The position numbers and the translations under genes were made by a program. The notes beneath the pieces are model-generated. The model made no database searches. It had not been told where the DNA came from and saw only the letters and a program-made list of their open reading frames with translations. This document shows positions 8,881 to 30,605 of a DNA stretch of 37,422 nucleotides, in pieces; positions within the stretch are counted from its first letter, which is position 1, and each line of letters opens with the position of its first letter. Source of the DNA: Dehalococcoidia bacterium (GTDB taxonomy: Bacteria; Chloroflexota; Dehalococcoidia; Dehalococcoidales; G020351185); contig CP070729.1 of NCBI GenBank assembly GCA_020351185.1, forward strand, positions 986,915-1,024,336, given 5' to 3'.

Positions 8881-9891
8881 ATGCACCGGGCGATGCTCCA
8901 TGAGAGCCTGCTGCAATCTAGAATACGCTGCAATATCTGCCAGTGGCGCTGCCAGATTGGTAAGGGCAAGGGTGGCGTTTGCAAGATGTACCGCAATATA
9001 GAGGGCATCCTGTATAACATGAATTACGCCCAAGTTTCTTCAGTCGCCATTGATCCTATTGAAAAGAAGCCTCTCTTTCATTTCTTTCCAGGTAGTTTGG
9101 CTTTTTCTATCGGTGGTTGGGGCTGTAATTTCCACTGTCAGGGTTGCCAGAATTGGCAGATATCATGTGTTGATATTCCGCAGCATGGACGACGGATTGA
9201 ACCCGAAGAAACTGTAAAGCTGACGAAGGAATACGACTGCCAAGGTATTGCTTGGACATATAATGAACCTACCATGTGGTTTGAATATACACTTGACTCC
9301 GCGCGACTGGCAAAAGAAAGCAATCTTTATACCGTCTATGTTACCAATGGCTATATGACGCCGCAGGCATTAGATACCATAGGTCCCTATTTGGATGCTT
9401 GGCGAGTGGATGTAAAGGGTTTCAGTGATAACCTTTATCGCAAACTGGCGGGGATAAACCACTGGCGCGGTATCCTTGAAGTTGCTATCAGAGCTAAAAA
9501 AAAATGGCAGATGCACATAGAGGTTATTACGAATATCATACCGGGTATGAATGATGACAAAACACAACTTGAAGGTATAGCTGACTGGATTTATGATAAA
9601 CTGGGAGAGCTCACTCCTTGGCACGTAACCCGCTTCTACCCCCATCATGAAATGGCAGACTCACCACCTACCCCAATATCCACGTTGGAGCGTGCCATTG
9701 ATATCGGTAGGAATGCCGGACTTAAATTCGTTTATCTGGGTAACGTGCCAGGGCATGGGGGAGAAAATACGACCTGCTATAACTGTGGTAATGTCATCGT
9801 TAAGAGGTACGGTTATCACGCAGAGGTAGTAGGTGTAAGAGGTTCTCAATGTAAGTTCTGCCGAGCAGAACTTAATATCAAAAAACTTTAG
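8881..9891 (+). CDS. AmmeMemoRadiSam system radical SAM enzyme
   Basis: 336 aa. N-terminal Cys cluster CNICQWRCQIGKGKGGVCKMYRN, DPIEKKPLFHFFPGS, the radical SAM motif CNFHCQGCQNWQIS, and the C-terminal CYNCG...CKFC. Confidence 0.85.
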   Translation: MHRAMLHESLLQSRIRCNICQWRCQIGKGKGGVCKMYRNIEGILYNMNYAQVSSVAIDPIEKKPLFHFFPGSLAFSIGGWGCNFHCQGCQNWQISCVDIPQHGRRIEPEETVKLTKEYDCQGIAWTYNEPTMWFEYTLDSARLAKESNLYTVYVTNGYMTPQALDTIGPYLDAWRVDVKGFSDNLYRKLAGINHWRGILEVAIRAKKKWQMHIEVITNIIPGMNDDKTQLEGIADWIYDKLGELTPWHVTRFYPHHEMADSPPTPISTLERAIDIGRNAGLKFVYLGNVPGHGGENTTCYNCGNVIVKRYGYHAEVVGVRGSQCKFCRAELNIKKL

Positions 9892-9894
9892 GGG

Positions 9895-11220
9895 GTGGTT
9901 ACTATGATAAGAGAAGCGGTAGTGGCGGGCAGGTTCTATCCAGCTTCACCGATTGAGCTCAGGGAAATGATAGCCAGTATGATTGATCAAATGGCGACAA
10001 AAGAAGATGTAATTGGGCTGGTATCGCCTCATGCTGGTTATATCTATTCTGGGCCTGTAACTGGTGCGACGATTTCTCGTGTCAGAATGAGAGATACCTT
10101 TATTATTCTAGGTCCAAACCACACGGGAATGGGTAAAGCTTTCAGTATTATGACCCAGGGTTTTTGGCGTACACCACTGGGTGATGTAGAGATAGATTCA
10201 GAGTTTGCTGGAAACATTGCAGCATTATCAAGCTATTTGGAAAAAGACAGTGATGCCCACCGCTACGAGCATTCCATAGAGGTTCAACTGCCTTTTCTGC
10301 AGTATTTAAAAAAAAATATTAAGTTCGTGCCGATTGTACTAGCCCAGGCTGACGGTACTGTATATAAGGAGATCGGGGAGGCAATAGCTGGAGCTGTAAA
10401 GAAAATAAAGAGAGAAGTTATCATTATAGCTTCCAGCGATATGACACACTACGAATCGCAGACTTCAGCAAAGGAGAAGGATAACCGAGCAATAGAAGCT
10501 ATGCTAGCGCTTAACGAGGATGAATTGATGGAGAAGGTTGAGAGATTAAAAATTTCAATGTGTGGCTATGCCCCCGTGATAAGCCTTATAACAGCCACAA
10601 AAGCACTGGGAGCGGACAAAGCCGAACTGGTAAGATACCAGACTAGTGGTGATACCACCGGCGATTATAGTTCCGTTGTCGGTTATGCTGGTTTAATATT
10701 TAAAAACTACAAGATGTCACCGATTGCGAAATTAGCAAAGGAGGCGGTGGAGACCTTTGTCAAGGATGGCAATATCATATCACCACCGGCTAAACCTACC
10801 ACCGAAATGAAAAAGAAAGCCGGGGTTTTTGTATCAATACATAAATTTGGCCAGTTGCGAGGCTGCATTGGTACTTTTGAGCCAGCACAGGAGGATATCG
10901 CTCGGGAAATAATAGCCAATGCCATTAGTTCAGCTACACGAGATCCCCGTTTTCCAACGATTACCACCAGTGAATTAGGTGATTTAAGATACAGTGTGGA
11001 TGTGTTGACAAAACCTGCGCCAGTGAAGGATAAAAATAGACTGAATCCAAAAAAGCACGGTGTGATAGTGGAGGGTAATTTGAGAAGAGGTTTATTACTG
11101 CCGGACCTGGAGGGAGTAGACACTGTCGAAAAACAGATTGATATCTGCTGCCAGAAAGCTGGTATAGATCCTGATGAGCCGGTGAATCTGTATTGTTTCT
11201 CGGTGAAGAGGTTTAAATAA
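9895..11220 (+). CDS. Fused Memo-like (AmmeMemoRadiSam protein B) / AMMECR1 (protein A) protein
   Basis: 441 aa. The N-terminal half has VAGRFYP, SPHAGYIYSG and LGPNHTG (Memo). The C-terminal roughly 170 aa has GVFVSIHKFGQLRGCIGTFEP and RDPRFP (AMMECR1). The start could be GTG 9895 or ATG 9904; the latter lies 8 nt after GGGGG. Confidence 0.85.
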   Translation: MVTMIREAVVAGRFYPASPIELREMIASMIDQMATKEDVIGLVSPHAGYIYSGPVTGATISRVRMRDTFIILGPNHTGMGKAFSIMTQGFWRTPLGDVEIDSEFAGNIAALSSYLEKDSDAHRYEHSIEVQLPFLQYLKKNIKFVPIVLAQADGTVYKEIGEAIAGAVKKIKREVIIIASSDMTHYESQTSAKEKDNRAIEAMLALNEDELMEKVERLKISMCGYAPVISLITATKALGADKAELVRYQTSGDTTGDYSSVVGYAGLIFKNYKMSPIAKLAKEAVETFVKDGNIISPPAKPTTEMKKKAGVFVSIHKFGQLRGCIGTFEPAQEDIAREIIANAISSATRDPRFPTITTSELGDLRYSVDVLTKPAPVKDKNRLNPKKHGVIVEGNLRRGLLLPDLEGVDTVEKQIDICCQKAGIDPDEPVNLYCFSVKRFK

Positions 11221-17625: not shown

Positions 17626-18387
17626 TTACCATATCTTAGGTATTAGGGCTTTACGCTCTGGTGGGTAATCAGTAAAATTATTTCGATACCACAGGTGATG
17701 AGCCCATGCCCTAGGACTAAGATTGGCGAATGTCCAGAATGCAAATGCTAACCCAGGTAGCGACCATGTTGCCACTGCCCAACCACTCCATATCATAATT
17801 TCACCGAAATAATTGGGGCATGATATAAAGCGAAAGAGTCCCGAATTTGATATTTTGTAATCGCACGAATCAGATCTACGAAGCTGCCGCAGAGAATTAT
17901 CCGCCTGACGGTTTATAATAAACCCGACGATAAAAAGGACAAGACCGGTTATAAATCGCGGGTCGGTGAGCCATTCATTTGTATAGCCAGAAGAGAAGGT
18001 AAAGATATAACGACCGTTTAAATATCCATTTACCGTATTAAAAAATAAGGCGAAAATAATAATTATTACAGGTATCCGGTTGGCTGAGGTTTGCAATCCG
18101 AAGGGATAGATGAAGGACCTATGAATATAATGTAATAGCCAAAGGGTGAGGAACACCAGTATAGTCGGTGTGATTTTATTGTCACCGAAAACAAATAATA
18201 TAAAGAATACAATAGGAGCTGGGGCTTCCATAACAATCCAGCTTAGTTTGTTATTGATAGCGGGTCCCCAGCCACGGCGTGAATGCCGACCATAAGGAGC
18301 GGCAACAAAGAATAGAGTACCGAATACGGCTAATGCCAATACAAACCAACTGATAAGAAGTGTGTTGAAAAAGGTATGTTCACTCAT
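17626..18387 (-). CDS. 3-oxo-5-alpha-steroid 4-dehydrogenase (SRD5A/DUF1295-like) family membrane reductase
   Basis: 253 aa, polytopic. C-terminal CPNYFGEIMIWSGWA...NLSPRAWAHHLWYRNNFTDYPPERKALIPKIW matches the steroid 5-alpha-reductase C-terminal domain. Confidence 0.75.
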   Translation of the reverse strand: MSEHTFFNTLLISWFVLALAVFGTLFFVAAPYGRHSRRGWGPAINNKLSWIVMEAPAPIVFFILFVFGDNKITPTILVFLTLWLLHYIHRSFIYPFGLQTSANRIPVIIIIFALFFNTVNGYLNGRYIFTFSSGYTNEWLTDPRFITGLVLFIVGFIINRQADNSLRQLRRSDSCDYKISNSGLFRFISCPNYFGEIMIWSGWAVATWSLPGLAFAFWTFANLSPRAWAHHLWYRNNFTDYPPERKALIPKIW

Positions 18388-19399
18388 GATTTACCCAATA
18401 TATTTTATCTTCTATGGCTTTATTATATCCGTTTTGCCCGAACCAGGAGACGGAATCTCTAATGGACTGTATTGCAGGTCGGGTAGTAAAACCAAGCTGC
18501 AGTCGGGCTTTCTCGGAGCTTATTAAAGAATTGCTACGGAGCACATCTATAGAATAGGTAGTAAAACGAGGTTTCCTTCTGGTCAGTCTGTAGTAAATGG
18601 GCGAAAAATAAGCTGCAATTCTAGCTAACCATAGAGGTATTTTTATATTAGGTGCCTTCACTCCGCTTATTTTCTGTAAGATTTTCATCAATCGGTAGAC
18701 GCTAATTTGTTCCCCAGAAAAAATATACCTCTCACCGCTTTGTCCTTTCTCACCAGCAAGGATAATGCCCTTTGCCACATCACGCACATCCACATAATCG
18801 TAAGTACCATCTATATAGGCTTTCAAGTTACCATTGATGAAGTCTAAGATGAGCTGACCCATCTCAGATATACGAAAATCATAGGGACCGATAATTCCCG
18901 TAGGGTGGACTATCACTGCATCCAACCCTCGCTTCACTCCTTCCAATATCACCATTGTAGCTCGGGCTTTGCTTCTACCGTAATTTTCAGTCACCCTCCT
19001 GGGATTACATGAAAGTGATTCATCGAAAATGGTGCCATGCGGCGGCTCTTCAATGGCATGAATAGAGCTTATATAAACGAGTCTCCTAACGCCTACCCGC
19101 ATGCAAGCTTCTACAACGTTTTGAGTACCAGTTACATTAACCTGCTCTACAAGTTTATCCCTACCTGGTAGAATCGATATGATACCGGCTAGATGGTATA
19201 CCATTCTGCTACCTTTGAAAGCTTGTATGAGAGTGTTAAGGTTGCGTACATCACCTTCAGCTATTTCTACCTTGAGTCCTTTAAGGGGATTCAAGTCTTC
19301 TGTAGGTAGCGTTAACGCCTTAACTTTCAAGCCCCTTTTTAAAAGCTGGCGGACGAGGACATTTCCAATATGACCGGTAGCGCCGGTAACTACAACCAT
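18380..19399 (-). CDS. NAD(P)-dependent epimerase/dehydratase (extended SDR; 3-beta-HSD / dihydroflavonol-reductase-like)
   Basis: 339 aa. VVVTGATGHIGNVLVRQL Rossmann motif and a YGRSK catalytic motif. Overlaps the downstream reductase gene by 8 nt. Confidence 0.8.
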   Translation of the reverse strand: MVVVTGATGHIGNVLVRQLLKRGLKVKALTLPTEDLNPLKGLKVEIAEGDVRNLNTLIQAFKGSRMVYHLAGIISILPGRDKLVEQVNVTGTQNVVEACMRVGVRRLVYISSIHAIEEPPHGTIFDESLSCNPRRVTENYGRSKARATMVILEGVKRGLDAVIVHPTGIIGPYDFRISEMGQLILDFINGNLKAYIDGTYDYVDVRDVAKGIILAGEKGQSGERYIFSGEQISVYRLMKILQKISGVKAPNIKIPLWLARIAAYFSPIYYRLTRRKPRFTTYSIDVLRSNSLISSEKARLQLGFTTRPAIQSIRDSVSWFGQNGYNKAIEDKIYWVNHE

Positions 19400-20933: not shown

Positions 20934-21182
20934 ATGACGAAAAGAGAAAAAAAAATAGTTGTTGTCTATTCTACTCCTGCCTGTCCCATTTGCAGACGAG
21001 CAAAAGCTTATCTTAAAAAGAGGGGTGTCGACTATAAGGATATTGATGTCTCTGCCAGCGAAGAATCCGCACATGAGATGATTCACCGCTCTGGACAGCT
21101 GGGGACACCAGTAATCTTCGTTGGTGAGAAAATGATGATTGGTTTTAACCAGAAGAAAATGGAAGAGATGTTAGCAAGGTAG
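20934..21182 (+). CDS. Glutaredoxin-like protein (YruB/NrdH-like, CPIC active site)
   Basis: 82 aa. VVVYSTPACPICRRAKAYLKKRGVDYKDIDV...GTPVIFVGEKMMIGFN. Confidence 0.85.
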   Translation: MTKREKKIVVVYSTPACPICRRAKAYLKKRGVDYKDIDVSASEESAHEMIHRSGQLGTPVIFVGEKMMIGFNQKKMEEMLAR

Positions 21183-21237: not shown

Positions 21238-22107
21238 TTAAAGATTATCTGCAATCTTGTACATATTATCATAGGACTTGCCAAAGTTTGGATTCTTGGC
21301 CTCAAGTTTTTGCCTGATTATTTTCATGTGGCTAATGAATTGCTGCTTGTCCTTTTGTTTTACAAGCTCAGCCCAATTTTCGCAACTTTGGAGAAAAAGC
21401 TTTTGGAAATGTGGTAGGTTTGGGAGATTCATTTGTAAGGAAGCATAGAGTTCGGGGTCCTCTGAAATGACACTTTCCACCAGAGTCAATAATACCTTAT
21501 AGGTTATACCACCCACGGACTCCATTTCTTTCATTCGCTCAAGGTTTGCCAAACTGTCAGCGGAGGCTATAGCAATGAAATGAGCTAGCCCTAGAATGAC
21601 AGCCATCAAATCATCGTGCTCTAGCGGAGTCATAAAGCGGACTTTAGCTCCCTTTGTTTCTAGGTATGATTTTATTTTGTTTGCTAGTCCCCTTTCCTGT
21701 TCAGTTGTAGGAGTCAGCACGAAATTCTGATTAACAAGGCTTCTAGCACCAGGACCGAATACCGGGTGTGTTCCTAGAATTCGACCTTTTGCTATGTACT
21801 TATGCATGGTCTCCACCGGAAGTGTTTTTACCGAAGTAATGTCAATAATGGTTTGCTCAGAGTGGGTATATGGGCTGAGTTTCTTTACAGTCTCTTCGAA
21901 ATTGTCTACCGGCACGGAGATTAAGATTACATCTGCCTGCCTGGTATCCTCCATACTCGTGGTTATGGAAACATCAAGCTGCTGTTTGATTTTTTCAAGC
22001 TTTTGATTGCTTCTACCCACTAGCAATACCTCTTTACCCTCTTGTAAAAAAAAGCGGGTAAACCAATTCCCCATTTTACCCGAACCGCCAATAATAGCCA
22101 CTCGCAT
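21238..22107 (-). CDS. tyrA: Prephenate dehydrogenase
   Basis: 289 aa. MRVAIIGGSGKMGNWF Rossmann motif, THPVFGP, and the PDH C-terminal helical domain. Confidence 0.88.
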   Translation of the reverse strand: MRVAIIGGSGKMGNWFTRFFLQEGKEVLLVGRSNQKLEKIKQQLDVSITTSMEDTRQADVILISVPVDNFEETVKKLSPYTHSEQTIIDITSVKTLPVETMHKYIAKGRILGTHPVFGPGARSLVNQNFVLTPTTEQERGLANKIKSYLETKGAKVRFMTPLEHDDLMAVILGLAHFIAIASADSLANLERMKEMESVGGITYKVLLTLVESVISEDPELYASLQMNLPNLPHFQKLFLQSCENWAELVKQKDKQQFISHMKIIRQKLEAKNPNFGKSYDNMYKIADNL

Positions 22108-22111
22108 CTCT

Positions 22112-23194
22112 TTATTCCCTGGCTTTAAATCTAGCTTTTGGATAGGAGCCTAAAACCTTCATAAAAATAACATAGTCTTCAAGTTGAATTAACGTTTCCT
22201 TAACTGCTGAATCGAGACGGTGTCCGTCGAAATCTAAATAGAAGTTATAATCCCAAGGTTTTTGCCTGGTTGGCCTTGACTCCAGCTTGGTCATATTTAT
22301 CTTGTTTATTGCCAATTGTTTGAGGAATTCAAAAAGAGCACCTGGCTTATGCTTTACGGCAAAGACGACTGATGTTTTATCATGACCTGAAGGTGGAGCA
22401 TCATCTTTAGATAGCACGAAAAAGCGCGTGAAATTGTTGGGATTGTCTTCAATGCCACATGTAATGATATTCATACAGTAGATTTCGGCAGCTCTGGGGC
22501 TGGCAATGGCGGCGCCATCAGTGATCTTCTTTTCCTTGATGAATTTGACACTACCAGCCGTATCGTATGTAGGTATTAGTTCACAGTTTAAGTGCTTAAT
22601 AAAAGCTTGACTCTGTCCTAGTGCCTGAGGGTGGGAGTAAATCCGCTTTATTGAACTTAAAGTAACACCTCGATTGGCTATTAAGCAATGTGACACTGGT
22701 AGTTCGATTTCACCACATACCTTAAGGGTGGAATCTAGTAGTAGATCATAGCTCTTACTGATACTACCCTCAATCGAATTTTCTATGGGTATAATTCCAA
22801 ACTGGGATTCGTCCCGTTCAACAGATTTAAAAACTTTTTCAAAGCTTTCAAAGGGTTTTACTTGAATGCCGGCACCGAAGAAATTAGCAGCTGCCTCTTC
22901 GCTATAAGCTCCTATCTCGCCTTGGAAGGCAACAATAGCTCCTTGGATGCTTTTGGAAGTGGTGAATATTTTGCGATAAATACCTTCGATATCCGTTTCA
23001 TTTATCCCCTTTTTACAGGCAATCTCACGGATATGCTCTAAAATCACGTTTTCCCTCTGCCTATCCTCAATCTGCTGCCCCTGTTTTCTTTTTAGACAGC
23101 CAATATGCTCGGCAAGGCTCAGCCTTTCAGCTATAAGCCGTACAATAGCGGTATCAACCTCGTCTATCTTTTTTCTAAGTTCTTCTATTTTCAT
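22112..23194 (-). CDS. pheA: Bifunctional chorismate mutase / prephenate dehydratase
   Basis: CM domain ([24 protein letters not shown]), PDT domain ([15 protein letters not shown]...ENS.EGS) and an ACT domain. I place the start at ATG 23194-23192, which forms an ATGA overlap with the aroC stop, rather than the track start at 23239. Confidence 0.9.
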
Positions 23195-24282
23195 TTTATT
23201 ATCCTTGGTATTAACCCAGCTCTTAGAGCAAAGTCGCACAGGGTTATAGCCATTATTGACTCTACAACTATCAACGCCCTTGGGACAATGCAGACATCAT
23301 GCCTACCTTTTAATTCAATTTTAGCGTTTTTCATTTCGCTTATGTTAACCGTTTGCTGTTTTTTAGCTATGGATGCGGTTGGTTTTATGGCCACTCTTAC
23401 TATAAGAGGCATCCCGTTACTCATACCACCCAGTACACCGCCGGCATTGTTACTATTGGTCGCCATCTTATCATTCTCAATAGTGAATGGATCGTTAATC
23501 TCAGAGCCTTTTTTGCGAGCTGCCTCAAAACCAATACCAAACTCCAATCCTTTTACTGCTGGGATCGCGAACAAGCCTTTGGCAAGTTCTGCATCAAGGG
23601 AATCGAAAACTGGCTCACCAATACCGGCAGGTAAACCGATGGCAACAGCCTCTATGATGCCACCTAGACTATCGCCTTGATTGGTGGCTTCCTCGATGGA
23701 GGCTATCATCCTATGGGTAGCTTCATCATCGGCACATCCAAGAGGATTATTGATTATCTTATGCCTTATCTCATCAAATTCCATATCCCGGGCAACTATA
23801 CCACCGATCTCAACAGCATATGCCATAACCTCGATTCTGATAATTTTGAGTAGCTTGCGGGCAATGGCTCCAGCCATAACGAAACTGGCGGTTATTCTAC
23901 CAGAGAATCTACCACCACCTCGATAATCTCCGAATCCACCATATTTGACATATGATGGATAATCAGCATGTCCTGGCCTTGGTAGAAACCGAGTTCTTGC
24001 ATAATCAGAAGAATCTATGTCCCTATTCCAAATTACTAAGCAGATCGGTGCCCCAGTAGTATAGCCATTAAAAATGCCGGCAAGGACTTCCGCTTTATCT
24101 TCTTCCCTTCTGGAAGTAGAGGCTGGATTACCCCCCGGTTTTCGCTTATTAAGCTCTTTTTGAATATCTTTCGCAGTAATAGCCAACCCCGCTGGGCAGC
24201 CGTCAATAATAACACCAATTAGTTTTCCATGACTTTCACCAAAGCTGCTTATACTAAAGAGTTTTCCGAAACTATTCGACAT
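23191..24282 (-). CDS. aroC: Chorismate synthase
   Basis: 363 aa. FGESHG, RPGHADY and [11 protein letters not shown] motifs. Confidence 0.95.
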
Positions 24283-25531
24283 TGAGTTTCACCTTTCCAC
24301 CCAGCTGTTTGAATGTCTGCCAAAAGTGTGGGTAAGTTTTAGATACACATTCGGCCCCCTCAATAATTGTATTACCAACTGCCGCACCAAGAATGCTAAA
24401 CGCCATAGCTATCCTGTGATCATTGTAACTGTTAATAACTGCACCAGTTGGATTGCCACCGGTAATTATCAACTTGTCTTTTTCTTCAGCAACGGGTATA
24501 CCCATCCTAGCTAAACCTTCTTTCAAGGCTAGCACACGGTTTGATTCCTTTAATCTCGCTCGGTTGATACCATAGAAACAGCTTTCACCATTGGCAACCG
24601 CTGCTAGCATAGCTAGTGTAGGCAGTAAGTCAATGCAGTCTGTTAAATCGGCTCTTATAGCTTTTAATCCTACTTTTCTGACCTTAACAGAATTTTCATT
24701 CACCATAACTTCACCTCCCATTGCCTGCAGTAAGTTTATCACTATCCGGTCACCCTGAAAACTTTGACTATTTAGATTAGTCACTTCTACCTGTCCTGAA
24801 AGGGCTCCCACCCCTAATAAATAGGATGCGGATGACCAATCGCTTTCGACGAAATATTCGGTTGGTCTGTAATCCTGTTTCGATATATTAAAAAACATAA
24901 AGTCAGAAGGGGCTTCCACGACGATTTCAAACCTTCGCATACATTCTAACGTCATTTTTAGATATGGCCTTGACGTGGGCGGGGTGGTCAATTGGATGGT
25001 CATACCCTTATCAGAAAGGGGTGCTACGAGCAGCAAGGCAGAAATAAATTGGGAGCTTATATCACCGGGTAAATTTACAGTACCGCCAAGTAACCGATTG
25101 CCGTTGACAATTACAGTTTTGTTTTCGAACTGGTTTTTTACTCCAAGCTGAGATAAGGCATTCAGTAGCGGTTCAATAGGCCTAAGAGCGAGGGAGGATC
25201 CTGGAACGAGATGGCATTTGCCTGGAATTACAGATGAAATAGCAATCATAAATCTAAAGGTAGCTGCTGAATCTCGGCAAAAAAGATAATCTCCCGGTTC
25301 ATGTAGACGACCACCCCGAACAAGCCAGCAGCTTTCTTCTTTAGTAATATCAGTACCTACCTGTTCTAGGACATCAGCTGCAGCTTCGGTATCATCCGAA
25401 ATTAATGGATTTAAAATACGACTTAATCCGCCAGCCAAAGAGGCACACATGAGACTACGTATGGTATAACTCTTGGAGGATGGGGCAGCTGCAACCCCAT
25501 TCATTTCAACTTTACTAATTAAAGCTTTCAT
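24272..25531 (-). CDS. aroA: 3-phosphoshikimate 1-carboxyvinyltransferase (EPSP synthase)
   Basis: 419 aa. [28 protein letters not shown] and DHRIAMAF motifs. Confidence 0.95.
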
Positions 25532-26042
25532 ATTCTTTTAATCTATCGATAATATTATCTACAGTAGCAGCTATATTCAGATACGATGTATCTATTTTAA
25601 TATCGGCGGCTGAATCATAAAAGGGTTGCCTAAATTCCAGCATTTTTCTGATTGTAAGCGCCCGATTACCCTTTAATAATAGTGGTCTGATTGTGCTGTC
25701 TGCATCAACCCTCTGTATTATTACCTCGGGAGTAGCCATAAGATAGATAATCACCGATCTCTTCTTAAGGCGTTCTATATTTATTTTATTCAGTACTATA
25801 CCACCGCCACAGGCAATGACCTGGTTACTACCCATAGCTACCTTTCGAGTTATTTCAATCTCAAGTTTGCGAAATGCAATCTCACCTTCCTGACGGAATA
25901 TGTCGGTTATGGACTTCCCTGCCCTAAGTTTAATCATTCCGTCGAGTTCTACAAGCTTTTTACCCAACCTATAAGCTAGGACCTTTGCTACTGCCGTTTT
26001 GCCAACTCCCATAAAACCGATAAGAGCTATATTAGTCTTCAT
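25515..26042 (-). CDS. aroK: Shikimate kinase
   Basis: 175 aa. IALIGFMGVGKT P-loop, FR..E and GGG motifs. Confidence 0.9.
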   Translation of the reverse strand: MKTNIALIGFMGVGKTAVAKVLAYRLGKKLVELDGMIKLRAGKSITDIFRQEGEIAFRKLEIEITRKVAMGSNQVIACGGGIVLNKINIERLKKRSVIIYLMATPEVIIQRVDADSTIRPLLLKGNRALTIRKMLEFRQPFYDSAADIKIDTSYLNIAATVDNIIDRLKEYESFN

Positions 26043-26898
26043 GATCCTTTAATAATTTAATCGCTTCCTTTTTCATAACATCCAAGGGGGCTCTAAATCC
26101 TGTCCATAGCTCAAAGGCCAGAGCTCCCTGCCAGACTAGCATTTCAATACCGCTTATTGTTTTGGCACCGGCTAACTCAGCATCTGATAGCAGTCTGGTT
26201 TTCAATGGGTTATAGACAGCATCAAAAACTACCAGTCCAGGCTTAAGAAGATTTTTTGGCACCAACGACCTGTCTATATTAGGACTCATGCCAACACTGG
26301 TTGCATTAACCAATATGTCAGCAGCATCCAGTGCTAGCGACAAGTTATCATCCGTTAATTCCATTGCTCTAGCCTCAGTTTTTGAGAATAGCGAGATTTT
26401 ATTCGCTAATTCTAATGCCCAGTTTAATTCCAACTTACGGTTGAGTATAACAATTTCAGCCCCTTTCTCAGCCAAAATAAATGAGATTGCCCGCGAAGCG
26501 CCACCAGCACCCAGAACAATTGCCTTTTTCCCCTTAGGTTGAATATCTTTTTCCAACAGAGCTTTTAAAAAACCGTCGGCGTCTGTATTGTAGCCTTTGA
26601 AACATCCCTCATCATTAACTATGGTATTAACTGCGCCAATTTTCATTGCCAGAGATTCAAGCTCGTCCAACAGTGGAATAACAGCAACTTTATGTGGGAT
26701 GGTTACATTAAATCCCCTTATGCCCAGCGTCTTCACTCCAGCAATTGCTCCATATAGATTATGCGTTTCCACCTTAAAGGGTAGATAGATATAATCTAGT
26801 CCAAGTTTTTTGAAAGATGCATTGTGCATTACCGGTGATACACTGTGTACCACTGGGTCGCCAATTAAACCGCAGATTCTTGTTTTTGCAGATATCAT
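26032..26898 (-). CDS. aroE: Shikimate 5-dehydrogenase
   Basis: 288 aa. GLIGDPVVHSVSPVMHN, NVTIPHK, NTD and LGAGGASRA motifs. Confidence 0.93.
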   Translation of the reverse strand: MISAKTRICGLIGDPVVHSVSPVMHNASFKKLGLDYIYLPFKVETHNLYGAIAGVKTLGIRGFNVTIPHKVAVIPLLDELESLAMKIGAVNTIVNDEGCFKGYNTDADGFLKALLEKDIQPKGKKAIVLGAGGASRAISFILAEKGAEIVILNRKLELNWALELANKISLFSKTEARAMELTDDNLSLALDAADILVNATSVGMSPNIDRSLVPKNLLKPGLVVFDAVYNPLKTRLLSDAELAGAKTISGIEMLVWQGALAFELWTGFRAPLDVMKKEAIKLLKDHED

Positions 26899-27551
26899 CG
26901 GAATACCATCTTGTATAAGCTATGAATTTGGCTTACGGCCATTTGACCTGGTGCTGATTGTTCACCCTTTTTAATAGAGGCATAGGTCATATAGCCACCG
27001 ACTAACGGACTGAGGATACGGCTAGACATACCTAAAGGGCCCATAGCAAAGGCTATTATATTCTGTTTTGGGAAATCCAAGATGAGCTTTAAAATGGCTA
27101 GATTATCCTCTGCGTTCGTAGCATAGGTTATTACTTTGCAGATATCAGCGCCAGATTCCAGTTGTCGCTTTACTATCTTGCTCAGGGCTTTAGAGGGGAG
27201 TGTCTCTTTAAAATCATGGAATGATAATAGGCACTTCGCTCGCTTCTTTACAAGCGGTACTATCTTTGATAAGTTTGGTGTTGAAAGCTCTATATCAATT
27301 ATGCTTGCTCCTAGTTGAATTGCTTTCAGTAACTCCTCTTTTCTTCTGGCTTCGTTCCCTTGCCAGCTACCACCTTCCACCTTGATACGGTTACAGGCTA
27401 TCCACGGTTTTTCCAGCTGCTGGACTAGATCCTGCCAGCCATCACCGATAATATCTATGCGAACTTCAAAAAAGTCAACCAGTGGTTCAGTGGCTTTTAT
27501 TACCGTTAAATCGTTATTAATAATAGAAGCACAGATAGCAGGCTTTCTCAT
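26895..27551 (-). CDS. aroD: Type I 3-dehydroquinate dehydratase
   Basis: 218 aa. EVRID, IDIEL, SFHDF and AFAMGPLGMSSRI motifs of type I DHQase. ATGA overlap with aroE. Confidence 0.88.
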   Translation of the reverse strand: MRKPAICASIINNDLTVIKATEPLVDFFEVRIDIIGDGWQDLVQQLEKPWIACNRIKVEGGSWQGNEARRKEELLKAIQLGASIIDIELSTPNLSKIVPLVKKRAKCLLSFHDFKETLPSKALSKIVKRQLESGADICKVITYATNAEDNLAILKLILDFPKQNIIAFAMGPLGMSSRILSPLVGGYMTYASIKKGEQSAPGQMAVSQIHSLYKMVFR

Positions 27552-28625
27552 TTAACTTCTAAGTACCTCCTCAACAATGGCAAAGTCCACCTCATCTGTA
27601 ATGAAGACTTCGCCTATTTTTTTTGGCAGGACAAATTTTACTTTACCACCAGAAATTTTTTTATCGTGTTTCATTACGTGTATTATTTTACCCGTATCCA
27701 AATGGGACATTTTTGTAGGTAGACCGAGGTATTCTAGTAAGGATTTCAACCTGAATAAGTCGTGGATATCGAATACACCCAGTTTTTCAGCGATTGTAGC
27801 AGCTACTATCATGCCTATAGCCACTGCGTGACCGTGTTTAACATCGAAATCGGATGTAGTCTCTATAGCATGACCGATGGTGTGACCATAATTTAAAATG
27901 TTTCTCAAGCCAGTATCTAGCTCGTCCTGAATTACAATGTTGGTTTTGATGTTGGCTGTACGGAAGACAATCTCCTTTAGTGTGCCTTCATCCAACGCCT
28001 TTATTTTAGTTAGGTTGTTTTCAATGAATACAAAGAACTGATCGTCTTTAATAAAAGCGCTTTTGATAACTTCAGCCATACCATTTGTAAATTCATCAGA
28101 CGGTAAGGTCCTTAATACTGTTATATCAGAGAGAACCAGCTCTGGTTGATAAAAAACACCGATTTCATTTTTCAGTTTATCGTGGTTTACTGCCACCTTG
28201 CCACCGATGCTACTGTCAACTTGTGCCAGTAATGTTGTTGGTATCTGTACCAGTGGAACTCCACGCTTATAAGTAGCTGCAACGAAACCAGCCAGATCGC
28301 CGACAACACCACCCCCCAAGGCCAGAATGGGTGTCTTTCGCTCGACATGACAATCACTGAGTTCTGTATAGAGGTGACCGGCAACGTCAAGCGATTTTTC
28401 TCCCTCGCCATCAGCGACAATCAGCGTAAATACTTCAAAGCTATTGTTTGATAGCCTCTCCACCAATAAGCTTCCGTATAGAGCTTGAATTTTTGGATTG
28501 GTAATAATCACTAGTCTTCCACTGAAACCGTGCTCTTTTAAGTGGTTGCCGGCCTTCTTGAGTAGATCGCTAGCTATCAGGACATCATAGCCCCTTTCAC
28601 CAAGATTGACTCTGATTTTCTTCAT
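27552..28625 (-). CDS. aroB: 3-dehydroquinate synthase
   Basis: 357 aa. GGGVVGDLAGFVAATYKRGVPLVQIPTTLLAQVDSSIGGK and NYGHTIGHA motifs. Confidence 0.95.
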   Translation of the reverse strand: MKKIRVNLGERGYDVLIASDLLKKAGNHLKEHGFSGRLVIITNPKIQALYGSLLVERLSNNSFEVFTLIVADGEGEKSLDVAGHLYTELSDCHVERKTPILALGGGVVGDLAGFVAATYKRGVPLVQIPTTLLAQVDSSIGGKVAVNHDKLKNEIGVFYQPELVLSDITVLRTLPSDEFTNGMAEVIKSAFIKDDQFFVFIENNLTKIKALDEGTLKEIVFRTANIKTNIVIQDELDTGLRNILNYGHTIGHAIETTSDFDVKHGHAVAIGMIVAATIAEKLGVFDIHDLFRLKSLLEYLGLPTKMSHLDTGKIIHVMKHDKKISGGKVKFVLPKKIGEVFITDEVDFAIVEEVLRS

Positions 28626-28628
28626 TTT

Positions 28629-29702
28629 TTATACTTTAACTTTTTTTCGGTGAATTTGCACTGTTTTACTAATTTCCATGCAGGTATCGATAATTTGTTT
28701 CAATTCTTGCGGTGTAATCATCTGTTGTGCATCGACTTTAGCTTCAGAAGGATTGTAATGTACCTCTATTGCTAGTCCGCTAGCACCGGCTGCTATTGCA
28801 GCGCAGCTCATATCAAAAATCAGATCGCGACGACCAGCAGCATGACTAGGATCAACCAGTATAGGTAGATAACTTTCTTTTTGAATAACTGGCACCGCAG
28901 CAAGGTCTAAGGTGTATCTAGTATAACTCTTACCCTTGCCAACAGGTACTATCCCACGCTCACAGAGGATAACGTCTTTGTTACCTTCAGCAACGATATA
29001 TTCAGAAAAGGAGAGAAACTCTTCAATACCGGCGCCAAAGTGACGCTTAAAAAGTATCGGTTTGCCCTTTTGGGCTACCTTACCGAGCAAATCCTGGTCG
29101 TACATATTTCTGGCGCCTATCTGTAGTATATCGACATATTCGGCTATAAGATCAGCCTGCATCTCGCCTCTTACCTCAGTCATGACCGGCATATCGAATC
29201 TGCGTCCAGCTTCGCGTAGCCATTCTAAAGCTTCTATGGCTTCATCGTTACCTAGAGAACCTAGTCCCTGAAAAGAGTGAACTGAGCTTCGTGGTTTGAA
29301 GATACCACCTCTCAATACATTGCCACCAGCAGCTTTTACTTCTTCAGCAATCCTAAACAATTGCTGTTTACTCTCGACGGCACAAGGGCCGGCGATGAAT
29401 ATAGGCGATTCGCCACCAATTCTGACATCACCTATTTGCACTATGCGGCTTTCATCTCTGCCCTCGAAGAGTTCGCTATACTCACGGCTGATAAGTTTAT
29501 AGGGAATCTCCACCATTCTGGCTTCTTTGACTCCCGATAGAACGGCTAAGTGAGTAAAAGATATCTTGCTCTCATCGCCTACGAGACCGATGACCGTTCT
29601 GAATTCTCCTCTGGAAACATCAGCTTTAAGTCCATGCTTCTCTACCTCTGTTACTACATGTTTTATTTCTTCCTCTGTAGCATCCTTTTTCATTATTATC
29701 AT
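28629..29702 (-). CDS. aroF: 3-deoxy-7-phosphoheptulonate (DAHP) synthase, type I-beta with an N-terminal ferredoxin-like regulatory domain
   Basis: 357 aa. The N-terminal roughly 70 aa (IIMKKDATEEEIKHVVTEVEKHGLKADVSRGEFRTVIGLVGDE) resemble the regulatory domain of Thermotoga-type DAHPS. The catalytic core has KPRSS..SFQGLG and DPSHA.GRR. GGAGGGG RBS. Confidence 0.92.
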   Translation of the reverse strand: MIIMKKDATEEEIKHVVTEVEKHGLKADVSRGEFRTVIGLVGDESKISFTHLAVLSGVKEARMVEIPYKLISREYSELFEGRDESRIVQIGDVRIGGESPIFIAGPCAVESKQQLFRIAEEVKAAGGNVLRGGIFKPRSSVHSFQGLGSLGNDEAIEALEWLREAGRRFDMPVMTEVRGEMQADLIAEYVDILQIGARNMYDQDLLGKVAQKGKPILFKRHFGAGIEEFLSFSEYIVAEGNKDVILCERGIVPVGKGKSYTRYTLDLAAVPVIQKESYLPILVDPSHAAGRRDLIFDMSCAAIAAGASGLAIEVHYNPSEAKVDAQQMITPQELKQIIDTCMEISKTVQIHRKKVKV

Positions 29703-29750
29703 TTGCCCCTCCTGAATGTTGTGTCAGATACCCGATTTTTTGGATTTTGT

Positions 29751-29784
29751 ATAAAGAAAAATCCTCCCACCCGGGAGGATTTTT
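29751..29784 (-). terminator. Intrinsic terminator in the 5' leader of the aro operon (attenuator)
   Basis: Minus strand reads AAAAAUCCUCCC-GGGU-GGGAGGAUUUUU (12-bp stem, 29784-29757), then CUUUAU. It lies 55 nt upstream of the aroF ATG and downstream of the putative promoter. Confidence 0.7.
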
Positions 29785-29809
29785 CTTTTTAGGTGTTATT
29801 TTACTTTAA

Positions 29810-29911
29810 TTATGCTCCAGAGCCTCCCGGGTGCGACTGACATCGCCAGGAAAATGTAAAACAAGAATATACGTAGCTATAAAACCGGTAAAGCTCAATA
29901 TTTACTAACAT
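29810..29911 (-). CDS. Putative aromatic-codon-rich leader peptide (33 aa)
   Basis: Not in the track. Minus-strand ATG at 29911. Translation: MLVNIELYRFYSYVYSCFTFSWRCQSHPGGSGA-TAA. 8 of the 15 codons at positions 8-22 are Tyr, Phe or Trp. Codons 27-30 are the antiterminator element. No clear SD (AAAGAAA upstream). Confidence 0.55.
   Translation of the reverse strand: MLVNIELYRFYSYVYSCFTFSWRCQSHPGGSGA
29823..29833 (-). promoter_or_regulatory. Antiterminator 5' element
   Basis: Minus-strand CACCCGGGAGG is the exact reverse complement of CCUCCCGGGUG (29778-29768), which is the terminator 5' arm plus its loop. The two pairings are mutually exclusive. Confidence 0.55.
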
Positions 29912-29938
29912 TTTCTTTATTTCGAATCACTCGTCAAG

Positions 29939-29967
29939 AAGATATCACGTAATTGATGTTTTGTCAA
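29939..29967 (-). promoter_or_regulatory. Putative promoter of the aro operon leader
   Basis: Minus strand TTGACA (29967-29962), a 17-nt spacer, then TATCTT (29944-29939). This would give a leader of about 20 nt before the leader-peptide ATG. Confidence 0.4.
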
Positions 29968-30119: not shown

Positions 30120-30145
30120 AAAGGATGAGCTTAGGCTCATCCTTT
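30120..30145 (+). promoter_or_regulatory. Perfect 11-bp hairpin in the rpsL 5' UTR
   Basis: AAAGGATGAGC-TTAG-GCTCATCCTTT, 28 nt upstream of the rpsL start. No T-run follows it, so it is not an obvious terminator. Confidence 0.45.
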
Positions 30146-30173: not shown

Positions 30174-30605
30174 TTGCCAACTGTAAATCAACTGGTACGC
30201 AAGGGGCGCAAGACAGTCAGCCGAAAGGCAAAAACACCAGCATTGCGTTTTAATTATAATGCCCTGAAAAACAAGATGGTTCGTGAAAAAGGTGCGCCGC
30301 AGAAGCGTGGAGTCTGCGTACAAGTAAAAACAACAACACCCAAGAAACCAAACTCAGCTCTGCGAAAGATCGCCCGAGTGCGATTGAGCAATGGCATGGA
30401 GGTAACAGCCTATATCCCAGGAGAAGGACATGAACTACAAGAGCATTCGGTAGTACTTATACGTGGAGGGCGGGTACCGGATCTACCCGGTGTCCGCTAT
30501 CATATTATTAGAGGAGCACTGGATTCAAGTGGTGTAACAAACCGAAAACAAGGGCGAAGTAAGTATGGCAGTAAACGGATAAAACCTACCGGTGAAACTG
30601 AGTAG
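30174..30605 (+). CDS. rpsL: 30S ribosomal protein S12
   Basis: TTG start at 30174 after AAAAGGGGGA gives the canonical (M)[12 protein letters not shown]. The track start at 30144 adds 10 non-conserved residues. PQKRGVC and [11 protein letters not shown] motifs. Carries the longer loop insertion between the N-terminus and PQKRG that B. subtilis S12 also has. Confidence 0.95.

Follow-up and report, generated by a model that had tools for sequence, protein, structure and literature searches.

A probable leader-peptide transcription attenuator ahead of the aromatic amino acid operon of Dehalococcoidales

The window analysed here, a stretch of 37,422 nucleotides (nt) from a bacterium of the class Dehalococcoidia, order Dehalococcoidales (GenBank assembly GCA_020351185.1, contig CP070729.1, positions 986,915 to 1,024,336), carries on its minus strand an operon for aromatic amino acid biosynthesis; the subject of this study is the leader that precedes the operon, a candidate transcription attenuator. 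NCBIfam assignments identified nine genes whose ends abut or overlap, and the nine-gene aro-pheA-tyrA operon proposed in a first-pass annotation of this DNA is therefore correct. The pheA gene encodes a chorismate mutase/prephenate dehydratase and tyrA a prephenate dehydrogenase. An open reading frame (ORF) for a glutaredoxin/NrdH-like protein, absent from the ORF list, converges with the end of tyrA and thus marks the end of the operon:

21238–29702, minus strand: nine-gene aro operon (NCBIfam assignments), comprising DAHP synthase (aroF, ATG at 29702), aroB, aroD, aroE, aroK, aroA, aroC, pheA and tyrA
20934–21182, plus strand: glutaredoxin/NrdH-like ORF of 82 codons (MTKREKKIVVVYSTPACPICRRAK...), convergent with the end of tyrA

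Residues 2–344 of the DAHP synthase align with the Thermotoga maritima enzyme (1RZM/3PG9), N-terminal domain included. In the T. maritima enzyme this domain is the Tyr/Phe-binding allosteric gate. Given the full-length match, the layering of allosteric and attenuation control suggested in the first-pass annotation is a reasonable proposition.

Upstream of aroF lies the divergently oriented rpsL gene. The divergent arrangement had been described correctly, but the gap is ~470 nt rather than 440 nt, because rpsL most likely starts at the TTG codon at 30174. Within this gap, and reading towards aroF, the following elements were found:

29939–29967, minus strand: promoter (consensus scan), with a −35 box TTGACA (29967–29962), a 17-nt spacer and an extended −10 box TGaTATCTT (hexamer 29944–29939)
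29810–29911, minus strand: leader ORF (translation of the minus strand), 33 codons plus TAA (29812–29810), ATG at 29911, MLVNIELYRFYSYVYSCFTFSWRCQSHPGGSGA
29846–29890, minus strand: regulatory codon run (translation), codons 8–22, with 4 Tyr, 3 Phe and 1 Trp
29842–29853, minus strand: region 1, UUUCCUGGCGAU, the codons for Phe20-Ser21-Trp22-Arg23 and the 5' half of the 1:2 pause/anti-antiterminator hairpin (minimum-free-energy fold)
29823–29837, minus strand: region 2, GUCGC plus ACCCGGGAGG, the 3' half of the 1:2 hairpin, which includes the antiterminator 5' strand CACCCGGGAGG at 29833–29823 (folding, complementarity and alignment)
29768–29778, minus strand: region 3, CCUCCCGGGUG, core of the terminator 5' arm plus loop, and 3' strand of the antiterminator (folding and covariation)
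29753–29788, minus strand: intrinsic terminator AAAGAAAAAUCCUCCC-GGGU-GGGAGGAUUUUUCUUU with U-tract, its 3' arm (29768–29753) being region 4 (minimum-free-energy fold)
29706–29713, minus strand: aroF Shine-Dalgarno (SD) sequence AGGAGGGG (anti-SD duplex −10.8 kcal/mol; median of the family of related leaders, −9.9)

The predicted promoter scored 10 out of 12 in the consensus scan and has TG preceding the −10 box. Its two hexamers and their spacing, as well as the leader ORF with its aromatic codon content, are as described in the first-pass annotation. The aromatic residues of the peptide are Y8, F10, Y11, Y13, Y15, F18, F20 and W22, and the amino acids coded in the run are matched exactly by the products of the operon.

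The 191-nt leader folded at −51.3 kcal/mol (z = −3.7 relative to dinucleotide shuffles), and its minimum-free-energy structure contains the terminator. Its stem comprises 16 bp, including an A/U extension of a 6-bp G+C core, is closed by a GGGU loop and ends 50 nt ahead of the DAHP synthase ATG. A hairpin with a U-tract had been recognised here earlier and is confirmed, but not with the extent then given (12 bp, 29784–29751). A standard terminator scan of the window made no call at 29788–29753, because its rule requires a T-run after the stem and in this case the stem absorbs the T's. Also confirmed is the claim that CACCCGGGAGG, which spans codons 27–30, exactly complements CCUCCCGGGUG, the terminator 5' arm and loop, over 11 nt. 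The duplex has an energy of −21.8 kcal/mol and z = −5.8, and none of 100 dinucleotide shuffles equalled it. The terminator and antiterminator pairings are mutually exclusive, and RNA cut short of region 4 folds as the 11-bp 2:3 antiterminator helix. The first-pass annotation had proposed a comparison of the two conformers; the energies obtained were −24.2 kcal/mol for the terminator hairpin alone and −20.1 kcal/mol for the antiterminator including its 44-nt loop. It had also placed the ORF stop just past the antiterminator element, which is right, although the distance to the first base of the TAA is 10 nt instead of 12.

A further hairpin, missing from the elements listed in the first-pass annotation, is predicted between regions 1 and 2, where UUUCCUGGCGAU pairs with GUCGC...CGGGAGG (−12.2 kcal/mol, minimum-free-energy fold of the segment). 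Its upper stem in the window is GCGAU-GUCA-GUCGC, directly 5' of the antiterminator strand, and in its lower stem UUUNCC, the last Phe codon and the one after it, pairs with GGGAGG of region 2. As a putative pause/anti-antiterminator structure, this hairpin completes the classical design.

Regions 2 and 4 each contain an SD-like GGGAGG (29823–29828 and 29763–29768, minus strand), and region 3 contains the anti-SD-like CCUCCC, with equivalents at the corresponding positions in all the related loci described below. Binding of the GGGAGG inside the ORF to the 3' end of 16S rRNA, with a resulting pause of the ribosome over region 2, is conceivable.

Relatives of the locus were sought with the DAHP synthase, using one genome per species, and the best 80 aroF loci (67–89% amino acid identity) were taken. 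All 80 came from Dehalococcoidia, Dehalococcoidales or Chloroflexota metagenome-assembled genomes (MAGs), including Dehalogenimonas and Dehalococcoidaceae. For each locus the 500 nt upstream of aroF were analysed, sufficient upstream DNA being available for 79. An automatic pipeline detected an ORF of 21–39 codons with a dense aromatic run in 76 of the 79 (for example YYAYFTFTWR, YYYYYFSWR and YYWYYYYFTGH), and aromatic-rich frames are present as well in the three loci that failed it (L026, L047 and L074). The best 12-codon window held on average 6.8 aromatic codons, as against 4.5 in the reverse complement and 3.6 in shuffled sequence. Ahead of the ORF, 71 of 76 leaders have TTGACA, a spacer of 16–18 nt and a TAnnnT −10 box, usually with TG just upstream. 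The part of the peptide before region 2 contained a median of 4 Tyr, 2 Phe and 1 Trp (73 loci), all three amino acids being present in 57 of these 73 peptides, and TAT and TAC were used 199 and 144 times, respectively, in the leader family.

With a relaxed hairpin rule, as the stem may absorb the U-tract, a terminator beyond the ORF was detected in 73 of 76 loci. It has the form CCYCYC-loop-GRGRGG followed by a U-tract, 21–61 nt past the stop codon and 27–170 nt before aroF. When the ORF region was paired with the 5' arm and loop of the terminator, the best duplex had a median z of −3.3 (z < −2 in 61/73), and its 5' strand always lay in the 3' end of the ORF. In every one of the 73 loci the stop codon was located inside region 2, or its last base lay 1–28 nt past the end of region 2. 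This agrees with the earlier proposal that the stop is so placed that a ribosome finishing the ORF would mask the antiterminator.

The terminator loop varies by lineage (AAGC, GGGU, AGGC, GAGC, CAGA and others), and matching changes are seen in the upstream strand (GCUU, ACCC, GCCU, GCUC and CUGG). In a MAFFT alignment of 72 leaders, 86% of the cells of the 11-pair antiterminator helix were paired, compared with 40–63% in slid controls. Double changes were seen in 69 cells, against 25.7 after shuffling, a number reached in none of 500 shuffles; 9 of the 11 pairs were affected. The helix core GGGAGG/CCUCCC is nearly invariant across loci, as expected if region 3 has to match two partners, regions 2 and 4. 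In about ten loci, region 3 has the variant CCCUCU, and regions 2 and 4 carry the matching AGAGGG-type change, a triple covariation. Of 71 loci, 66 have a predicted 1:2 hairpin; 52 distinct stem sequences occur, a common form of the upper stem being GCGCAC-AAG-GUGCGC. On the alignment, 80.5% of the upper stem was paired (22–54% in slid controls), and double changes numbered 31 compared with 14.2. Conservation of this hairpin gives the leader the full four-region classical architecture. RNAalifold on the MAFFT alignment returned a consensus helix of 4 bp only, the antiterminator core, since the terminator and the small hairpin are misaligned where loop lengths differ; per-locus analyses and counts of the named structures were used in its place.

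Taken together, these findings make the leader very probably a classical transcription attenuator of the ribosome-mediated (leader-peptide) kind. Across an order of bacteria its elements are conserved and the predicted pairings covary. The ORF, the aromatic codons and the pairings, whose behaviour in orthologous leaders the first-pass annotation had singled out for comparison, are kept in about 75 other genomes, and its proposal of a trp/pheA-type attenuation logic is thereby supported. Transcription would start ~20 nt upstream of the 33-codon leader ORF. Once regions 1 and 2 had been transcribed, the 1:2 hairpin would form and probably pause RNA polymerase until a ribosome arrived. With charged Tyr-, Phe- and Trp-tRNA plentiful, the ribosome would reach the TAA and cover region 2, so that the 3:4 terminator could form and transcription would stop before aroF. 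If one of the aromatic tRNAs were poorly charged, the ribosome would stall in codons 8–22 and melt or cover region 1; region 2, thus freed, would pair with region 3, and the polymerase would enter the nine-gene operon. The pausing of the polymerase and the response of readthrough to amino acid supply are predictions from the sequence elements.

Several observations weigh against this interpretation. In the window (42% G+C), nine stop-free stretches with at least eight aromatics per 15 codons occur over the six frames, and the first-pass annotation had itself cautioned that AT-rich DNA inflates TTT/TAT/TAC codons by chance. The aromatic run on its own is therefore weak evidence, and the case rests on the comparison of 80 loci. 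An open frame discriminates poorly as a test of coding, as 27 and 19 of 76 loci also lack stop codons in the other two frames over the same span. It was replaced by a test for an in-frame ATG within 60 nt upstream of the run, which was present in 74 of 76 loci, compared with 11 and 8 in the other two frames; this frame-specific conservation argues that the leader ORF is translated. The conserved TGG codon forms part of the 1:2 stem and may be kept for structure instead of Trp sensing. A crude thermodynamic simulation of ribosome masking gave a trend only: with a stalled ribosome the antiterminator came out as the minimum-free-energy fold in 54 of 73 loci, a number that fell to 22 when the ribosome sat at the stop codon and stood at 43 when there was none. 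The ambiguous state in the absence of a ribosome means that the default must be set by folding kinetics, as in other attenuators. Finally, an SD sequence before the leader ATG, sought across the family by anti-SD duplex energy, was found in none of its branches (window −3.1, family median −3.85, shuffled −3.4 kcal/mol). The lack of a convincing SD, already conceded for the window, is thus a property of the whole family.

An SD sequence is usual in leader-peptide attenuators, yet translation does not strictly depend on one. Between the −10 box and the leader ATG lie 6–42 nt among loci and only 6–10 nt in some six to eight of them (from L042, L045, L059, L062, L063, L070, L073 and L076), where the ORF looks to be read from leaderless or nearly leaderless mRNA. 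The MAGs of L070 and L076 are assigned to Dehalogenimonas. With no SD and a short 5' untranslated region (UTR), translation would have to start by an SD-independent, 5'-proximal or leaderless route, and the leader ORF most probably uses such initiation.

If the ORF were incidental, the switch could work without translation, through an RNA-binding protein (TRAP-like, recognising UAY/UUY triplets) or a small-molecule aptamer. The missing SD and the frequently open alternative frames would suit such a switch, and the UAU/UAC repeats could in principle form a protein-binding array. It is nevertheless improbable, since the ATG is conserved in one frame only, the ATG 6–7 nt after the −10 box in several loci has the geometry of a leaderless mRNA, and the stop codon is without exception within region 2 or shortly past it. 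Moreover, Tyr, Phe and Trp codons vary freely in number and order and the mixed use of TAT and TAC is codon-like, while the run region contains no conserved structured aptamer and has no Rfam match. The ORF might instead encode an arrest peptide, TnaC-like, that stalls the ribosome in response to a free amino acid and not to a shortage of charged tRNA, and a short peptide motif that follows the Tyr run, F-[TSP]-[WG]-R, is indeed fairly conserved. This motif coincides with region 1 RNA, however, and its conservation is explained by the 1:2 stem; the length and the remaining sequence of the peptide vary widely, and the logic would be inverted, with high amino acid giving readthrough of a biosynthetic operon. 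We regard this mechanism as less probable still.

To two other explanations we give hardly any credence. One is chance, an aromatic-rich ORF lying beside an ordinary hairpin in AT-rich intergenic DNA and having no regulatory meaning. The recurrence of comparable aromatic runs in the window is in its favour, but the conservation of all elements at the level of the order, with compensatory changes, effectively refutes it. The other is a divergent T-box or other known riboswitch, which deserved attention as T-boxes lie upstream of trpE and trpB-like genes in Dehalococcoides (PMC2494555). At the gathering threshold, however, an Rfam search of the whole window matched only a tRNA, with no family at the leader, and a search of 20 related loci gave no match at the leader either. 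T-box (RF00230) was rejected, as its covariance model did not match the leader even at E-values up to 10, and the leader, only ~180 nt long, contains neither a specifier loop nor the T-box sequence.

Ribosome-mediated attenuation by the leader peptide is the reading that we retain. In its widest form we consider it likely that these leaders are the first family of classical leader-peptide attenuators to be recognised in Chloroflexota, Tyr-dominated and reading all three aromatic amino acids, kept across Dehalococcoidales, and governing the whole common, Phe and Tyr pathway alongside T-boxes on the Trp branch, with a leader ORF translated without an SD and, in some lineages, from leaderless mRNA. 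If this is true, attenuation would hinge on leaderless or 5'-end-proximal initiation in tight coupling with transcription.

Elsewhere in the window the following features were found:

30174, plus strand: most likely rpsL start codon, TTG (MPTVNQL), with AAGGGGG ahead of it; the TTG at 30144 given in the ORF list is not favoured
30120–30145, plus strand: perfect 11-bp hairpin AAAGGATGAGC-TTAG-GCTCATCCTTT in the rpsL 5' UTR, ~30 nt before the start codon
30010–30039, plus strand: promoter-like site ahead of the rpsL hairpin
8881–11220, plus strand: radical SAM gene followed by one gene fusing Memo and AMMECR1 domains
17626–19399, minus strand: gene for a steroid 5-alpha-reductase-like membrane protein (PF02544), overlapping a 3-beta-hydroxysteroid dehydrogenase (3-beta-HSD)/NAD-epimerase-like gene

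Near-identical copies of the rpsL hairpin, for which no Rfam family match was obtained, occur ~405–435 nt upstream of aroF in two of the related loci (L008 and L030), and the hairpin may represent a leader element conserved in the str (rpsL-rpsG-fusA) operon. The fusA ORF start as listed (30996) overlaps rpsG, and the true start is probably the internal MPRSYPLDH. The radical SAM gene and the Memo-AMMECR1 fusion look like components of an AmmeMemoRadiSam system with two of its three parts fused. The pairing of the PF02544 and 3-beta-HSD-like genes is odd, being unexpected in the genome of an anaerobic member of the Dehalococcoidia.

Dehalococcoidia are slow-growing bacteria of environmental importance with streamlined genomes, and little is known of their gene regulation. 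A well-supported cis-regulatory element for the entire aromatic pathway provides a concrete, testable circuit in this class. To our knowledge, Tyr-dominated leader peptides are few. Should the leader work as proposed, attenuation would be possible with an SD-less or leaderless ORF, which bears on transcription–translation coupling in these organisms. The mechanism itself is unsurprising to a specialist; the family is new for the phylum, very well supported and useful for annotation, and its addition to RNA and upstream-ORF databases could improve the annotation of MAGs. Its unusual traits are the tri-aromatic, Tyr-dominated run, the SD-less or leaderless ORF, the order-wide conservation and the nine-gene target. 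No description of leader-peptide attenuation in Dehalococcoidia or Chloroflexota was found in the literature searched, outside which several in-silico surveys lie, so that an earlier mention is possible; within this scope the statement in the first-pass annotation that no such case was known in organisms of this kind holds. A comparative survey considered that the amino acid attenuator motifs then in Rfam may have a gamma-proteobacterial origin (PMC3766115), and the Dehalococcoidales family adds a case of classical attenuation from another phylum.

Among characterised families, Phe_leader (RF01859) and Leu_leader (RF00512) scored 28.3 and 29.7 bits against gathering thresholds of 55 and 50, respectively, with alignments mostly over the terminator. 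Membership was rejected, the sub-threshold leader and small RNA matches of an E-value search being driven by the terminator, and the leader is outside these sequence families, though it would work like them. With the E. coli pheL-pheA and trpL-trpEDCBA leaders it shares the four regions, regulatory codons in or near region 1, a 1:2 pause structure, a 2:3 antiterminator and a 3:4 terminator with U-tract. The E. coli leaders, however, each sense one amino acid and have an SD, and their stop codon lies before region 2, whereas the Dehalococcoidales leader mixes three aromatics, has no SD and a very short or absent 5' UTR, and has its stop codon after region 2.

The Dehalococcoides trp T-boxes belong to the same lineage and overall pathway and likewise sense tRNA charging through a terminator/antiterminator switch, but they read uncharged tRNA directly and without translation, and T-box features are missing from the aro leader. 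The aromatic pathway thus appears to be under divided control, with T-boxes on the Trp branch and a leader peptide on the common, Phe and Tyr branches. In Acholeplasma, the computationally predicted uORFC-13-1 motif (Brewer et al. 2021, PMC8632094) is also an upstream ORF with a promoter, start codon and Phe codons directly before a terminator and aroF. It differs in coming from Mollicutes, in having a described ribosome-binding site, and in a U-run that codes for at least one Phe with no Tyr run. The closest known case in function is the aroR leader peptide (Phe-Tyr-Phe) of Corynebacterium glutamicum, which precedes an aroF operon and is reported to answer Phe but not Tyr limitation (Neshat et al. 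2014 via PMC11802643). Control of aroF by a leader peptide is therefore not new in itself, being known from C. glutamicum and predicted in Acholeplasma. As in C. glutamicum, mixed aromatic codons in Dehalococcoidales would attenuate an operon that starts with DAHP synthase. A sequence relationship is not expected. The leader of C. glutamicum, a member of the Actinobacteria, has only three regulatory codons, whereas the Dehalococcoidales leader is dominated by Tyr and precedes a nine-gene operon that includes pheA and tyrA.

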